NCBI RefSeq assembly: GCF_033153115.1 | Contig: NW_026889753.1 | Span: forward strand, 3,782,001 to 3,846,000 | From: Saccostrea echinata | Lineage: Eukaryota | Direction: 5' to 3' | Length of the DNA: 64,000 nt | Part shown: one piece after another, positions 56,646 through 64,000 of the stretch | Layout: each line of letters starts with the position of its first letter | Position numbering within the stretch: position 1 is the first letter of the stretch | Program-made: the position numbers and the translations under genes | Notes under the pieces: model-generated | Database searches by the model: none | What the model was told of the DNA's origin: nothing | What the model saw: the letters and a program-made list of their open reading frames with translations, nothing else

Positions 56646-58052
56646 ATGGTGGATAATTATGAATACGATCTCTTCATAGTTCATAGTTCTGAAAACTCCA
56701 CCAAAGCTAGAGATTTGATGATGGACCTTGAAAACAGATTTAAAGTGAAGTGTTGTTTTGCAGATCGGGAATTCCTTCCAGGAACTGAAATTATAGAAAA
56801 CGTAACAAATTTCATGGACAAGTCGGATAAAATTCTGGTGCTGCTCAGTCCAGCTTCTGTAAGCAGTGGATGGTGTTTGCTGGAATTACAAGAAGCCTTT
56901 AGAAAGAATGTCCAGGAGAAAAGGAATTGCATTATTCCAGTTATGCTTGAAGATGCGGAGGTACCAAAACTATTACGGAACATGACATATATAGATTTTC
57001 AAAAGGAAGCAGATCCCGCCGAAAAAATACACAGAGCATTTCGACAAGAATTTCCAATCATTCCATTTGACATCTCATTAACTGAAGACGAAGATTTCAC
57101 CGATTTGGAAGACAGTCTAGAACTTATGAAAGAGGAAACACATGTAGCAACCCTTCAAGAGTATTTTGATGAAGCATTAAGTAAAAAAGATTTAAAACTT
57201 TGCCAGTGTATTTTGGAGAATGGTCATACTCGACTGAGTTTAAATAACATTTTTAACTTTTGTACAGATTTATCTAAAGAACAATATAACCAGGAATTAG
57301 TGGAGATGGTGTTCCAGAAACATGAACGTGGTCTTTCAATGGCTGATTATAAGAACGCTTACCGTGCCGCCTGTTGGAGAGACATTGGGTGTCTAGTCGC
57401 TGAATTCAACAAACTGGGTTGCCAGGAACTTCTGAATGTTTCTTTCGTATGTGACCTAATTTCAAATATGAAACTCCTCACCTCTGCAGAGGAGAATTTC
57501 ACGCTCTCCAACATTCTGAAAGGCACAAAATGGGCATTCGGAGACCTAAAGCTATTTATAGACGAAGCAATTTCTACAAAAAACCAGAAGATACTTGAAA
57601 TTTTGCTTTCACTCATTCCCATTTTACCTTTCAAACAGTTTTCCCAGTTGATATTAATTTTAGATGAAGAAACTTGTACTGAGGTATTTGACAGAGAAAA
57701 GTACGCAAACCAAAACAGTTTACAAGAAGCTTTATTCCAAGCGTGTATCAAAGACATGAAAAGTTTAATGAAAGAAATATTAAAGCAAGGAGTACAGCTG
57801 CAACCAGATTTCCTCAACAAAGATTTCAGCTTTGGGATAGTCGAAATTTTAATTCTAGACTATCAATGGACTTTAAGCGAACTACAAGAAATGGAGAAAT
57901 TTTTGACGCGGCCAAAATGTAGAAGATTGCTCCGAACTGAGATCAAGAAACTTTTGAATACCCCCACTGACAAATGTACAGTTTTGTATGAAAGAAATGC
58001 AAGTACATGTTTTAAGGAAAATTTTCGCAATAAAAGATCCGATTTATCCTGA
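56646..58052 (+). CDS. Intronless TIR-domain protein with acidic linker and degenerate ankyrin-like helical repeats, paralog 1 (468 aa)
   Basis: YDLFIVHS, DREFLPG, ILVLLSP, SGWCLLEL, IIPVML, YIDF TIR motifs; no TM or signal peptide. Confidence 0.92.
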   Translation: MVDNYEYDLFIVHSSENSTKARDLMMDLENRFKVKCCFADREFLPGTEIIENVTNFMDKSDKILVLLSPASVSSGWCLLELQEAFRKNVQEKRNCIIPVMLEDAEVPKLLRNMTYIDFQKEADPAEKIHRAFRQEFPIIPFDISLTEDEDFTDLEDSLELMKEETHVATLQEYFDEALSKKDLKLCQCILENGHTRLSLNNIFNFCTDLSKEQYNQELVEMVFQKHERGLSMADYKNAYRAACWRDIGCLVAEFNKLGCQELLNVSFVCDLISNMKLLTSAEENFTLSNILKGTKWAFGDLKLFIDEAISTKNQKILEILLSLIPILPFKQFSQLILILDEETCTEVFDREKYANQNSLQEALFQACIKDMKSLMKEILKQGVQLQPDFLNKDFSFGIVEILILDYQWTLSELQEMEKFLTRPKCRRLLRTEIKKLLNTPTDKCTVLYERNASTCFKENFRNKRSDLS

Positions 58053-58798
58053 TTATGACTACTAGTATATGGTAGAGAGAACGTCAAAGTAGGCAAAGCC
58101 ATTAACAGATCACAATAGTAGTGGTATGGTTTAGATATGGAATCTTGGCCGTCCATCCGATAACTGATGATTGAAAACGTCAAACTTTGCGGTGTATGAT
58201 TAAACTATATATGAAATCAAGACTTGGCAAAAATACACATTATCAACATCAATTCAATGAAATCCAGTTCAAAAATGTAAATAAAAAAGTAGTAAATAAA
58301 AAAATCCAGATGAAAAATAAATAACTGACCAGTTTGTGTAAATTGTTTGTTACATGTAGGTCACCTTAGTTAATCTGAGGTAATCTATTGCTATCTGTCT
58401 GTGTCCGTCGTAACAATTAATCTTAACTAATTTCTACCAATTTTGGTTATTAGCATAAATTGGTAAAGGGGAACACAAATAAAGATTTTCATGGTCTCTG
58501 CCTCCATGTGTCCCGAGGGTAGTGGCCAAAACCATAAAACTTTATGCAATCTTAAAACCTTTTTTCCCTGGACATCAGGCAGTCGAACTGTTGGTTATTA
58601 TATTAAACTATGAAACGCCTACGACAATTGTGAAATTCGCGGCCCATGGGTAAAGGGTTCAAGCTCCAGGGTGGGGCATCGTTTGTCATATATTGAAAAT
58701 GCATTATACTTGTATCTTATAAAGTCTTCTTTAATCATGGACATATAGCAGGTACGAAAGCCTATTAGGATCAATCTATGGAGAAATTTTTTTTTAAA

Positions 58799-59088
58799 TA
58801 GGCGTAATAACGCCTTTCAAAAAGGCTTAATAACGCGAAAAAAGGCATTATTACGAATGTTCAAAAGGCGTTATTACGCCTTTCAAAAAGGCTCTATTAC
58901 GCCTTTTCAAAAGTTGTTATTACGCCTTTCAAAAAGGCGTTATTACGCCTTCTCAAAAGGTGTTATTACGCCTTACAAAAGACGTTATTACGTATTTTCA
59001 AAAGGTGTTATTAAGCCTTTCCAAGAGGCGGTATTGCGTCTTTCTAAAAGGCTTTATTACGCCTTTTCAAAAGGCGTTATTGCGCCTT
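58799..59088. repeat. Tandem array of ~21-22-bp self-complementary units (aaaaggcgttattacgcctttc), about 13 copies
   Basis: Direct reading; no spacers. Confidence 0.9.
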
Positions 59089-59520
59089 ATATTTTTAATA
59101 CATGGCTAACTTAGCCCACCCTGGGGGCTGAAATCTTACTTTTGGAACATGGATTTCACAAATATAGAGCTAATTTCTCAAAAAAATAATTTAAACAAAT
59201 TTTAAGTAGATTTCCAGGAAAAGATTTTGAAATGTGTAATATATTTTCAATGTTATACCTGATGCCAGACACCTCTACCAAGGGTCATGGATTTCACAAA
59301 TTTAGTTGAAAGCTAATTGCCATTATACCCATGCAAATAGTTTGCCTGCTTTTTTCCAAGAGGAGAGAAAAATATTTTCAAATTTGACATGGATTTTTAA
59401 TTACATGGCCAGCAAAGCCCCAAGCTGCATCTGCCTATATCCTGGATTTTCACAAGTAGAGTGTTGACTTTTCTTAGTACGCATGCAAACAGTTGTCTGC
59501 GAGATGTGCAGGAATATAGA

Positions 59521-59818
59521 TTATGATTGTTTGTTGTTAAAGTCCCTCTCGAGAATTTTTCACTCATATGGAGACGCCATCATTTGCCGGTGGAGGGCTA
59601 CGAATTTTGACCTATACTCGGCACTCAGGGCCATTGAGCAGTGAGGGATCTTTTTCGTGCCAGCACCTACTGCGAAACGGGACCTCGGTTTATACGGTCT
59701 CACCCGAAGGACCGGTCTCCACGTCCCGCAGTGGGGTTTCTAACCCGCGACGTAAGGATAAACTCCTTACTACGCGACTCTAGAGCAGACGCTCTAACCA
59801 CTGCGCCACGCGGGCCAC
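59521..59818 (-). mobile_element. Full-length tRNA-derived SINE, same family as 39433-39732
   Basis: Reverse-complement homology; 12-bp TSD caggaatataga. Confidence 0.92.
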
Positions 59819-60048
59819 CAGGAATATAGAAAATACTTTTAAATATTGCATAAATTATGATGGCTTTGATTCAATCTTTCATATATTTATTAATATAAAA
59901 TAACGACTTTCCTTTTCTGGATATAACGGCTTTTCAAACATGCCCCCCCCCCCCCACTTTTTGGAGAATAGTCTTGCCATCGTTTAAATATAAAAATTCA
60001 TTTATTGACTGTTTGTTCCTGAACATTGTGTTGCAGTAAAGTAAAACT

Positions 60049-60120
60049 CATCGTCGCAATTCTATTTCCACAAACGTTGTGGAAATAGAATGGACACAAA
60101 ACCCGTGGCTTGCGACGATG
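60049..60120. mobile_element. 72-bp mini-transposon with 9-bp TSD
   Basis: catcgtcgcaa / ttgcgacgatg TIRs; agtaaaact duplicated; internal 15-bp-stem hairpin. Confidence 0.85.
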
Positions 60121-60280
60121 AGTAAAACTCTGGCAAATAATTGCATTTAAAGAAAGTTATAGCGAAAAGTTAGAAAAAAGATCCCCCTCGAGTTTAGGCA
60201 GTTTTGTTTTTATTGGGGGGGGGGGTGTTTCTTGTTTTTTTTACTTATAATTGCTTGTCATTTTTTAGCACAGGCCTGTT

Positions 60281-60382
60281 AAAGGCATAATAATGGCTCT
60301 TCAATCGGCATAATAACGCCTTTTAGAAAGGCGTTATAAAGCCTTTTGAAAAGGTGTTATAACGCCTTTTGGAAAGGCGTAA
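60281..60382. repeat. Second short array of the 21-22-bp unit
   Basis: ggcataataacgcctttt-type units, mostly in the opposite orientation to 58860-59088. Confidence 0.8.
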
Positions 60383-60566
60383 TTTAGAGAGATAAACTGT
60401 TGTTTGTGATTCTGTCATTTGAACTCTAATAAACCGAATAATATTGTTTCAGAAGATGCAACACACAAAAAAAGTTTTATTGCACCATGGCTAGACATAA
60501 TACCGGAACACACACATGTGTCATCGTCAGCAATGTCAATGATTTTATTTTTAGATTGTACTTTAA

Positions 60567-61611
60567 AGAAACTGGGGGGATAAGCCGAGCCATATGCCTA
60601 CATAACGATCGATAAAAAATCAATAAATTCATTTTACAAAAATTTCACTTTTTGTTGAATTAATGTAATGCTTATTACCATTTGCATATAAATTTGACAA
60701 AACCTGAATACTGTAACAGCGAAAATGATTCTGATTAACACAACAAAATGGCATCACGCTCAATTTTCACAGAAACTGACATAAATTGGATGATATAACT
60801 ACATTTTTTAAATAGAGTGGGTCATCGTACCATTTTTTTGAGAACGATTAATGAAAGGCAATGGAAAGATGTTGCTTTTTACACTTGCAAAAATTTGGTT
60901 TGAAGACCCACTTTACATAAAAAATTAAGTTAACTTACTTAAATTTTCACCGTGGTCTTAAAAAATTCTAAGTCCAAAAACGCTTGCTAAATATAGAGAA
61001 CTGTATGCTATTTAAATGGAAATGTTAGTGTGACTCCGTGGTCTAGTGGTTAGCGATGAGCTCTTTAAAGGGACGTTTATTGAGGAAAGTGTTCGAGTCA
61101 TGCTCTGATTTTTTTTTTTGAATTTTTTAGTTTTAATTTTGTTTTACTTTATAAAAAATGTCTATAGGAATAACATATTTTTCACTGAAAATAAAATATA
61201 TATATGTAATAATGAACTTATTTACAGTAAATTATTTAAAATGCCGGATAAAAATTATAATAGATATTTGAATACTTTTATTCCCGTTTTATTTATTTTA
61301 AATAAAAGCGCTTCTAGATCACCATTATCATTATATACGACGTTAACATTTTTATAATATCTCCACAATAAGTGTAAACACTCAATATGCAGATTAATTA
61401 ATAGAAGTCCTTACCCATGTTAGACATTTGTGACAGTAAATGAAAGTCAACTGTTTAGCTTGTTTAGAATATAAATATCATTTTGAAAACTACGGTAAAC
61501 ATTAAAATGCTCAAGTAAATTCGAACAATTGAGAGATTTTTTCCAATAAATGTTCTTGCATAGCCGAAAAATGGGCATGGGCACATGGCTCGTCTTATCC
61601 CCCCAGATTCT
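60567..61611. mobile_element. TTAA-site non-autonomous DNA transposon (Kolobok-like AG termini) containing a tRNA-like Pol III remnant
   Basis: ttaa|agaaactggggggataagccgagccatatgcc ... ggcacatggctcgtcttatccccccagattct|ttac; A box tggtctagtgg and B box gttcgagtc at ~61038-61099. Confidence 0.82.
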
Positions 61612-61848
61612 TTACTTGGGACTTCTTTTTATTTGGCTATCGAAGCTTGTGATGCGTCAGTACGTGACATCGACAAGCATTATAATTGTTTTCTATTCTC
61701 GTCCAGAACCAAGGAAATAATTAAGGATGCAATACGAGTACCCCGTCATAATTTATGTAGACAAGTTAAGTATATAATACAGTATATAAACATATGCCGG
61801 CGTGAGTTCATTGATTCTTTCTCTGTGGTGAAAACGAAATTGAGAATA

Positions 61849-63258
61849 ATGGCGGATAAAGCATACGAGTACGATCTCTTCATAATTCACAGCTCTGAAA
61901 ACTCCGCCAAAGCTACAGAGTTAATGATGGACCTTGAAAACAGATTTAAAGTGAAGTGTTGCTTTGCAGATCGGGAATTCCTTCCAGGAACTGAAATTAT
62001 AGAAAACATATCAAATTTCATGGACAAGTCGGATAAAATTCTGGTGTTGCTCAGTCCAGCTTCTGTAAGCAGTGGATGGTGTTGGCAGGAATTACAAGAA
62101 GCCTTTAGAAAGAATGTCCAGGAGAGAAGGAATTGTATTATTCCAGTTATGCTGGAAGATACGGAGGTACCAAAACTATTACGGAACATGACATACATAG
62201 ATTTTCAAAAGGAAGCAGATCTCGCCGAAAAAATCTACAAAACTTTCACAAAGCTAGGAAGTGAAAAAGCATTTATCTCGGATGATGAGAGTTTATCAGA
62301 TCCAAGAGGATACCTTGAGGAGGTTGTATGTGCATATGACGACGATTTTAGCGATAGTGAAGAGCGCTTAGAATTTTTGAAAGAGGAAGCAAATATATCA
62401 ACACTTCAAAATTATTTTGACGAGGCTGCAAGAAAAACAGATTTAGAACTTTGCCAATGCATCTTAGAGAACAATCATACGGCTCTAAGTTCCAAAAATA
62501 TTTTCAACTTTTGTGTGCATTTTCCTAAAGAGCAACTTAACCAGGAGTTGGCCAATGCAGTATTTCAAAAACGCGAGGGTGCTCTTTCTTTCACCGATTT
62601 TAAGAACTCGTATCTTGTAGCTTGTTCAAGAGATATTCCATGTCTAGTGACCGAATTTAACAAGTTGGGATGTAAGAAACTTATAAATGCCTCATTTGTT
62701 GGCAACATAATACCAGGAATTCCTGACAATTCCACAGTGGAGAACGAGACATTAACGAATATACTAAAAGAAATGAAGTGGAATGATGAAGATGTATTGT
62801 CTTTTCTAGAGGTAGCCATTCAGTCAAGAAAATCAGCAGTCATAAAAGTATTGCTTTCACTCATTTCCACGATTCCATTCCAGACCTTTTACCAACTGAT
62901 TTTTGTATCAGATGAAGAAACTTGCACTGAGGTACTACATATAGGAGAGTACAAAGAGGAAAAGGGTTTGAGAGATGTCTTGTTTAGAGCATGCTTGATG
63001 GACATGAAAATTTTAGTAAAGGAAATTTTAAGGCAAGGAGTGAAGCTTCAACCAAATTTTCTTGACAGAGATTTTAATTTTGGTATAGTGGAAATTTTAA
63101 TCCAGGAATATTCATGGAATTTAGAGGAACTACGAGAAATTGAAAAATTTTTAATGTGGCCGAAATGCAGAAGATTGCTTCAAAAAGAAATCCAAATTAA
63201 ATTAAATGCCCCTACTGATAAATGTTCAGTTCTGTATGATAGAAATGCATGTATTTAG
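61849..63258 (+). CDS. Intronless TIR-domain protein with ankyrin-like repeats, paralog 2 (469 aa from MADKAY)
   Basis: Collinear with paralog 1; SGWCWQEL; ATG 61849 aligns with the paralog 1 start. Confidence 0.92.
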   Translation: MADKAYEYDLFIIHSSENSAKATELMMDLENRFKVKCCFADREFLPGTEIIENISNFMDKSDKILVLLSPASVSSGWCWQELQEAFRKNVQERRNCIIPVMLEDTEVPKLLRNMTYIDFQKEADLAEKIYKTFTKLGSEKAFISDDESLSDPRGYLEEVVCAYDDDFSDSEERLEFLKEEANISTLQNYFDEAARKTDLELCQCILENNHTALSSKNIFNFCVHFPKEQLNQELANAVFQKREGALSFTDFKNSYLVACSRDIPCLVTEFNKLGCKKLINASFVGNIIPGIPDNSTVENETLTNILKEMKWNDEDVLSFLEVAIQSRKSAVIKVLLSLISTIPFQTFYQLIFVSDEETCTEVLHIGEYKEEKGLRDVLFRACLMDMKILVKEILRQGVKLQPNFLDRDFNFGIVEILIQEYSWNLEELREIEKFLMWPKCRRLLQKEIQIKLNAPTDKCSVLYDRNACI

Positions 63259-63532
63259 TAAAGGTTAGCAAAATAATTTAGATCTGATTTTTCCTGATGA
63301 TGACTACTAGCATATGGTAGAGAGACTGTTAAAAGTAGGTAAAACCATGGAACCAGAGAAGTGATAAAGTTCAGAGGTGGAATAAGGGGCAGGAATCGCC
63401 ATAGAAATTTAAAGCTAGAAGGACTGCATTGTTACTTGTGACCAATATCTACAATAGGGTCCGCCAACAGCTTATCTCCCCCTCGCGCCGCTAGAGGCGC
63501 TGTTGTAATATGAGGTATTCGAGATAAACAAC

Positions 63533-64000
63533 ATGGCGTACGCTTCGTACTCCGTACAGAAATTGAAAAAAGAATTGATGTTGCGCGGCGCTGTAACTAC
63601 GGGAAGAAAAACAGATCTCATAGAAAGGTAAGAAAAACACTAATACTGTTAAAAATAAACGATTTTCATTGAAGTAATCGTAATATGATTAAAATAATTA
63701 GGGTTATCAGAGTCAAGTCACACGAGTGCTACATTGTCAGTGATTGTACTGACATTATGCCTACAAAAACTGTTAAACAAATTTCATATTACTGTGTAGG
63801 TTGGAAGCATACGAACGAAATTTTAACTTTAGCGGTCCCGTAATAGAGCTGCCAGCGGAAAGGAAGGTAGACTGGCCCACCACTGGGTATAAACAAATTA
63901 CATCAGAGCATTATGACTTATTGCCACATAGGCCCTATATCAGAAGCCCATATCGAAGGTACAGTAATATGGGGGAAAATCGCTTAAGTATGTTAAAAAA
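63533..64000 (+). CDS. 5' part of a spliced SAP-domain ORF (exons 63533-63627 and from 63800), probably transposon-borne and possibly frameshifted
   Basis: MAYASYSVQKLKKELMLRGAVTTGRKTDLIER|LEAYERN fits the SAP consensus (LxxELxxRGxxxxGxKxDLIxRL); GT-AG intron in phase 2. Confidence 0.7.

Follow-up and report, generated by a model that had tools for sequence, protein, structure and literature searches.

A 64,000-nucleotide stretch of the genome of the oyster Saccostrea echinata (NCBI RefSeq assembly GCF_033153115.1, contig NW_026889753.1, positions 3,782,001 to 3,846,000 of the forward strand; hereafter the window) carries two tandem genes, gene 1 and gene 2, which lie 3.8 kb apart on the same (+) strand and encode soluble proteins combining an N-terminal TIR domain with a C-terminal helical solenoid (Table 1). 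Both reading frames run uninterrupted from ATG to stop at the limits assigned by an earlier reading made from the letters alone (the sequence-only reading), and the ATG of gene 1 is preceded by a stop in the same frame, three codons upstream. The exact 469-residue product of gene 2 is present in NCBI/UniRef; that of gene 1 is absent from these records. Contigs from sequencing runs (six in all) whose RNA origin is a guess span the two gene starts and, in each gene, the passage from TIR to ankyrin part, and no splice-type joint fell inside either coding sequence among the joints listed (15 of 68, and two in a second listing), in keeping with the earlier description of two intact intronless genes. 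Two of the runs contain a GT..AG joint (63625-63798) just 3′ of gene 2, which suggests that those runs are RNA. Since contigs cross the starts and junctions and none of the listed joints is a splice joint within them, the genes are very likely not parts of a larger receptor. The sequence-only reading had allowed that they might be exons of a larger known receptor; this alternative is rejected on the strength of the stop upstream of gene 1 and the contigs running across both starts, and is also contradicted by full-length homologues of the same architecture and of 459-494 residues. A word-based search for a longer fused form found none among 7,990 candidates, the longest of 866 residues, which is weak evidence.

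Table 1. Features of the TIR-ankyrin gene pair (window positions)
Feature	Position	Strand	Description
Gene 1 coding sequence (P0001)	56646..58052	+	468 residues, single coding exon
Gene 1 TIR	56658..57044	+	Pfam TIR_2 E 1e-20; TLR-type BB loop DREFLPG; alphaC WCLLE
Inferred conversion tract, gene 1	56718..57017	+	codons ~25-124, ~96% DNA identity to gene 2
Gene 1 Glu80 codon	56883..56885	+	catalytic position of enzymatic TIRs
Gene 1 acidic linker	57045..57140	+	low-confidence in model; from count of D+E
Gene 1 solenoid (probable)	57144..57956	+	~8 helix pairs plus capping helices; AlphaFold2, VIA-align, repeat test
Gene 2 coding sequence (P0002)	61849..63258	+	469 residues, single coding exon
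Gene 2 TIR	61864..62250	+	Pfam TIR_2 E 1.3e-21; alphaC WCWQE
Partner of inferred conversion tract, gene 2	61924..62223	+	
Gene 2 Glu81 codon	62089-62091	+	WCWQEL
Gene 2 acidic linker	62251..62391	+	from count of D+E
Gene 2 solenoid (probable)	62395..63204	+	58% identical to that of gene 1; sub-threshold Ank_3

The N-terminal TIR assignment was confirmed by bit scores of 74.9 (gene 1) and 77.8 (gene 2) against a Pfam TIR_2 cut-off of 28, which place both proteins in the TIR superfamily, and the linkers are acidic as described, with Asp and Glu making up 12/31 residues in gene 1 and 16/46 in gene 2. Neither product gave a Pfam match, at E values as high as 1, to an LRR, death, NACHT, SAM, NB-ARC or DBB domain, nor to a kinase-homology or RNase domain, both proteins stopping shortly past the solenoid. 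Neither contains a transmembrane helix (highest 19-residue hydropathy 1.6 for gene 1 and 1.5 for gene 2), so that the earlier view of the products as cytosolic, with no transmembrane, LRR, death or NACHT domain, stands.

Both TIRs also keep the WCxxEL motif that had been pointed out (WCLLEL and WCWQEL, respectively). Its Trp and Glu, like the BB loop D-R-(E/D)-F-x-P-G, are conserved in 6/6 full-length family members. The sequence-only reading had cautioned that this Glu also occurs in non-enzymatic TIRs, a caveat that proved stronger than stated. A search of the genome gave at least 93 TIR matches (150 of 259 candidates scored); the Glu is present in all 28 of the best non-self TIRs examined, 18 of which have a transmembrane stretch directly upstream and are TLR-like, and it is thus not diagnostic of catalysis. 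In the PDB, the best sequence matches of the gene 1 TIR were TLR15, TLR6 and oyster TIR-STING, while a profile of the family TIR was nearest to TLR15, TIR-STING, TLR6, TLR2, TLR1, MyD88 and MAL (E 1e-19 to 1e-11), with the plant enzymatic TIRs L6, Roq1 and RUN1 scoring far lower (E 3e-8 to 0.1) and no BCAP sequence among the matches. The nearest TIRs in the genome (~40% identity) appear to consist, in the two loci read, of an N-terminal TIR exon followed by a two-helix membrane exon. Gene clusters with an N-terminal TIR exon ~35-40% identical (L009-L015 and L017, on contigs C12, C15 and C45 of G000; L040 and L041) constitute an expanded TIR-membrane family that outnumbers the studied pair.

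The C-terminal domain is helical, ~270 residues long, and without a Pfam family above cut-off. AlphaFold2, given a 15-row alignment, modelled it as one helical solenoid (predicted local distance difference test score, pLDDT, 90.4; predicted template modelling score, pTM, 0.80) of ~8 helix pairs, in which first helices begin at model residues 7, 39, 72, 105, 138, 169 and 196 and the period of the pairs is 31-33 residues across the first six units. When the model was compared with 48,161 solved chains using VIA-align, RNase L ranked first (Z 10.9-11.0, root-mean-square deviation 5.4-5.5, ~250 residues aligned, 14% identity), in a tie with a DARPin, a designed protein (Z 10.9), and ahead of ankyrin-1 (Z 10.7). 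Among the top 13 rows, seven are ankyrin proteins by title and two are unnamed axoneme chains; the other four we take to be ankyrin proteins as well, giving 11/13. The first match of the C-terminal part in the ESM Atlas was an Ank_2 cluster (0.95, 151 shared features), the family profile matched, at unit R7, an ankyrin protein from a bacterium (E 3.5e-6), and a BFVD search with the solenoid, which returned nothing at E<=0.001, had weak rows rich in viral ankyrin proteins. We infer an ankyrin fold from these models, but several results weigh against it: the best Z is at most 11, below the 13 that the tool demands of repeat proteins; Foldseek placed PPR-type solenoids in its top PDB rows, non-significantly (E 2e-3); and a PDB-sequence profile search with the C-terminal domain matched no ankyrin, nor RNase L. 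The Pfam ankyrin threshold is likewise missed, with Ank_3 at 13-16 bits against a cut-off of 22.3 and only weak Ank_3 in 3/15 and weak Ank_2 in 2/15 family members. The label 'ankyrin-like' given by the sequence-only reading is favoured by the helix pairs and the ankyrin-dominated VIA-align rows but not by the Z-score, Pfam or Foldseek, and the domain is probably a degenerate ankyrin-like solenoid.

That reading had also seen a duplicated A-B-A′-B′ repeat pattern, quoting four motifs (DEALSKK / RAACWRD / DEAISTK / QACIKD), all of which come from gene 1. When 28 pairs of units were tested, R3~R7 (z 5.7), R1~R5 (z 3.9) and R1~R7 (z 3.9) were similar in register, and autocorrelation of the solenoid gave a best lag of 124. 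The pattern is modestly supported by R3~R7 and R1~R5, but R1~R7 scores as highly as the latter, and an hhalign self-comparison of the solenoid was not significant (probabilities <10%). The repeat test left out P0011, P0012, P0013 and P0015; P0012 and P0013, short matches that make up 2/15 rows of the folding alignment, are apparently bisulfite-converted DNA by composition. A bacterial origin of the C-terminus was considered and is unsupported, one bacterial ankyrin protein and one repetitive protein being found among 13 profile matches.

Comparison of the two genes with one another revealed a sharp contrast between their halves. The TIRs of the two products are 87-90% identical and the solenoids 58%, and synonymous divergence (dS) is 0.09 over codons 25-124 and 0.17 over codons 5-129, but 1.55 over codons 166-450. 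At codons for the same residue, synonymous differences number 5/87 in the TIR core and 74/161 in the solenoid (Fisher 4e-12), a silent-site contrast that held in a sliding-window permutation allowing for the choice of window (p<=5e-5). Since protein-level selection cannot produce such a contrast, it points to gene conversion or unequal crossing-over, and judging from these sites the homogenisation of the TIRs most likely reflects gene conversion between gene 1 and gene 2. Adding a Saccostrea cucullata protein as a third sequence, the TIR core has 9 sites that join gene 1 to gene 2 and 2 that join gene 1 to Saccostrea, whereas in the solenoid the corresponding numbers are 17 and 70 (Fisher 7e-5). 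As the solenoid tree unites gene 1 with S. cucullata (support 100/100; a paralogue clade rejected by the approximately unbiased test, p-AU 1.6e-8), the duplication is older than the species split. It counts against conversion that the TIR tree leaves the three sequences unresolved, a grouping of gene 1 with Saccostrea (ordinary orthology) being compatible with the test (p-AU 0.15), so that the timing of the conversion is less firm than its occurrence. In one run (X3) a contig joins the 5′ end of gene 1 to gene 2 (56805 to 62012), and in another (X1) a gene 2 contig contains three gene-1 bases. These fit ongoing conversion and equally assembly chimeras, because the identical stretches, of 35-45 bases, are longer than the 31-base word, and they were not counted as evidence of conversion.

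The sequence-only reading had proposed a constant effector and a variable sensor, in parallel to plant TIR-NLR logic. On this account the pair would belong to an expanding family of pathogen sensors whose repeat domain diversifies under pathogen pressure, as the higher identity of the TIRs than of the C-termini might suggest. Tandem copies in another source (P0020 and P0008, whose longest contigs have the same length, 50,804) would fit as well, as would an X1 contig with a divergent gene 2 3′ end bearing seven amino acid changes (codons 437-464, from the differences listed). However, the contrast in identity is matched at silent sites, and dN/dS between the paralogues is ~0.18 for the solenoid (dS being near saturation), not above the 0.25-0.33 of the TIR. 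The solenoid is thus, on these estimates, under purifying selection between the paralogues; since that of gene 1 is also 76% identical to its S. cucullata orthologue's, it looks like the binder of a conserved partner. With no NB-ARC, NACHT or SAM domain, only at least two copies found in the genome and 13 matches among 1.84 billion representatives, the plant-like parallel fails, and we regard an expanding sensor family as improbable. A weaker remnant of the idea could hold, namely that conversion sparing the ankyrin half has been favoured by selection. More generally, gene conversion can mimic a conserved-effector, variable-sensor pattern, which calls for a check of silent sites before immune diversification is inferred. 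The X1 contig (63133-63256), a haplotype of gene 2, has 12 listed differences in ~125 bases, seven of which are gene 1's base; it may be an old allele, conversion or an assembly artefact.

The size of the family within this genome, a check that the sequence-only reading had suggested, is small. The C-terminal domain was found in at least two places in the 923-Mb genome, both within the window (8 candidates scored), a search with a distant family member likewise gave at least two copies, gene 1 and gene 2, and neither the rest of the window nor the 40 kb that follow it contain a further copy. The profile search of the 1.84 billion representatives yielded 11 family members or fragments among its matches, and word-based searches added two full-length members; the four full-length homologues all have the TIR-linker-solenoid layout, and several others are fragments. 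The sole homologue with a credible species name, S. cucullata LOC134282119, is labelled 'uncharacterized', and no description of a TIR-ankyrin family was found in the literature searched, subscription journals falling mostly outside the search. Consistent with the earlier description of an uncharacterised family, the pair apparently belongs to a small, undescribed one. One family fragment (P0016), deposited as a Bonamia ostreae protein, falls into a 90% cluster with a sequence of oyster type and so probably stems from contamination by the host.

The two genes could also be duplicates peculiar to their lineage that are dispensable or work outside immunity, a TIR having been joined to an ankyrin scaffold whose function is weak or of a housekeeping kind. 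The fragmentary state of several homologues would agree with this, as would the apparent loss of a short C-terminal tail in both genes. But both frames are intact despite a split with dS ~1.5, and 53 positions are invariant across seven aligned ankyrin domains, which leaves this reading unlikely. As to the tail, the regions past the stops (57990-58060 in gene 1, 63238-63310 in gene 2) encode IYPDYDY and IFPDDDY in another frame, resembling the IFPNYDN C-terminus of S. cucullata; from this resemblance, one and the same short tail, kept in the S. cucullata protein, has apparently been lost from gene 1 and from gene 2.

The explanation we favour, though with confidence that goes only about halfway, is that the two products are cytosolic adaptors or dampeners of TLR/MyD88 signalling, BCAP-like but without DBB. 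It draws on the TLR-type BB loop, a TIR closest to those of TLRs, MyD88 and MAL, the lack of SAM, NB-ARC and NACHT domains and the purifying selection on the solenoid. BCAP has a TIR-DBB-ANK layout, dimerises via DBB/ANK and binds MAL and TLR TIRs, as described in PMC5241739, and scaffold-type TIR assemblies are distinguished from enzyme-type ones in PMC8635717. By analogy, the solenoid would engage a partner or form dimers, and the TIR would enter TLR/MyD88-type TIR assemblies by protein contact. Conversion would keep the two TIRs suited to a single common partner, and each ankyrin half would retain a partner of its own; for TLR1/TLR6 the authors of PMC2077338 argue that conversion keeps shared-partner domains alike. 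Low-level production of cyclic ADP-ribose (cADPR) may coexist with such a role, which does not require it. We infer every one of these steps beyond the architecture itself. Several observations speak against an adaptor. The TIR of oyster TIR-STING is the second-best PDB match of the family profile, and its NADase is listed as active in one secondary source, as 'suggested' in a second (10.64898/2026.04.20.719644) and as 'unclear' in a third. In a 17-row TIR tree the family branches apart from the TLR clade of the oyster (split 97/98), and active animal TIRs fall mostly outside TLR clades in the account of 10.64898/2026.04.20.719644. Moreover, as TLR4-type TIRs make cADPR, a TLR-like BB loop is compatible with catalysis.

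A possible but less probable alternative, which keeps the NAD+-cleaving core of the sequence-only reading and drops its variable sensor, is a ligand-gated enzyme in which the ankyrin domain would hold the TIR off until a danger signal arrives, whereupon clustered Glu80/81 would cleave NAD+, the product most likely being canonical cADPR. The conserved WxxxE residues and the effector-linker-repeat layout suit such gating, and oyster TIR-STING is among the nearest solved TIRs. SARM1 achieves repeat gating and clustering through its ARM and SAM domains; the oyster products have no oligomerising domain (SAM, NB-ARC or NACHT) by Pfam to E=1. Their full-length model, built from a four-sequence alignment (pTM 0.43, TIR pLDDT ~55), contains no confident TIR-ankyrin packing, which is more uninformative than negative, as was a fold search with that low-confidence model. 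The Glu argues for an enzyme less than it might, being present in all 28 nearest genome TIRs examined and in TLR2, IL-1R9 and IL-1R10, which are inactive according to Hurieva et al. (10.64898/2026.04.20.719644). In that report, 12/61 Glu-bearing animal TIRs, TLR4 and a mollusc TIR among them, were active in Escherichia coli and 49/61 were not; most active ones made cADPR without depleting NAD+, and the authors state that oligomer-dependent activity escapes the assay. The 12/61 would set a prior for catalysis in this family of ~1 in 5, perhaps higher, and, were the TIR catalytic, cADPR output would be likelier than NAD+ depletion.

Set beside known systems, the pair most resembles BCAP/PIK3AP1, BANK1 and Drosophila Dof, soluble TLR-pathway regulators with an N-terminal TIR followed by ankyrin repeats (as presented in PMC5241739), but it has no DBB, and its ~8 degenerate repeats follow directly on a 31-46-residue acidic linker. 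Oysters and other invertebrates are already known to have cytosolic proteins that fuse a TIR to repeats (PMC4346834, PMC6321704, PMC5549309, PMC5094078), in which, as in the pair, TIRs have been shuffled onto repeat domains and which are proposed as adaptors or regulators (first three sources). The kinds named there include ARM-TIR, TIR-TPR, EGF-TIR, IG-TIR and TIR-only MyD88-like proteins and the ecTIR-DC families (PMC4346834, PMC6321704, PMC5549309). TIR-ankyrin is not among the oyster classes in the figure legend of PMC4346834, and whereas ecTIR-DC families reportedly occur widely among invertebrates, the one credible species name attached to a homologue of the pair is that of an oyster. 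Crassostrea gigas TIR-STING (PDB 6WT6; profile E 1e-18) is likewise an oyster protein with an N-terminal TIR and a C-terminal module, but that module is STING rather than an ankyrin-like solenoid. Some ecTIR-DC families reportedly carry ankyrin repeats. SARM1 and the plant TIR-NLRs RPP1, Roq1 and L6 share the alphaC WxxxE with the pair, whose repeat domain could be a sensor like theirs, but the pair lacks SAM and NB-ARC, has a TIR nearer the TLR/MyD88 type and belongs to a tiny family under purifying selection. Mammalian TLR1/TLR6 are also tandem genes whose TIR-coding DNA is homogenised by conversion while their binding domains diverge, but they are membrane LRR receptors with conversion reported in nine species (PMC2077338), whereas the pair is soluble and its probable conversion is seen in one genome. 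It differs from Toll-like receptors in lacking an LRR ectodomain and a transmembrane helix, from MyD88 in lacking a death domain, and from RNase L, whose ankyrin sensor domain is the best-ranked (tied) fold match to the whole solenoid, in lacking a kinase or RNase domain and in sharing 14% identity. By their defining domains, the two proteins are not members of the BCAP/BANK1, TLR, MyD88, SARM1, TIR-NLR or RNase L families.

The tied RNase L match, an OAS1_C match above cut-off that marks an OAS-like gene in this genome (G000 C12:9949894-9950740 (-)) and the report for C. gigas of OAS with RNase L absent (PMC6307210) together suggest one further reading, which we consider a long shot. The solenoid would be a receptor that senses a nucleotide second messenger, for example 2′,5′-oligoadenylate (2-5A), and is wired to a TIR NADase/cADPR output in place of a nuclease. 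It is just as speculative that the pair would supply the reader that oyster OAS lacks, with conversion keeping one enzyme on two ligand-distinct sensors. Ribonuc_2-5A matches one locus in the genome, presumably IRE1.

Bivalves have many cytosolic TIR proteins of undescribed function, among which the pair offers a compact, soluble, single-exon test case. Its near-identical TIRs joined to differing C-terminal domains amount to a natural swap experiment, which bears on the newly open question of whether animal TIRs beyond SARM1, when part of the full-length protein, signal enzymatically.

Upstream of the pair lie two genes for ligand-gated ion channels and one for Daxx, an animal neighbourhood. 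The former are divergent, apparently single-exon Cys-loop channel genes at 6063-7307 (-) and 7898-9280 (+) (Pfam Neur_chan_LBD, Neur_chan_memb), and the latter is a multi-exon Daxx-like gene at ~27285-45361 (-) with a 669-residue acidic exon (Pfam Daxx), its extent being inferred from open reading frames. Between gene 1 and gene 2 lie 23-bp tandem repeats (58792-59088, 13 copies; 60313-60380, three copies). Spliced contigs at 63453-63959 (GT..AG, 63625 to 63798), seen in two runs, represent the next gene, which starts ~200 bases past gene 2 and has a GTPase-like exon (L005) that may resemble GNL1. Further on, ~2 kb past the end of the window, a YqaJ-domain reading frame (L003, 2333-2977 (+)) converges with a transposase-like one (~3490-4695 (-)), and the two are probably a DNA transposon.

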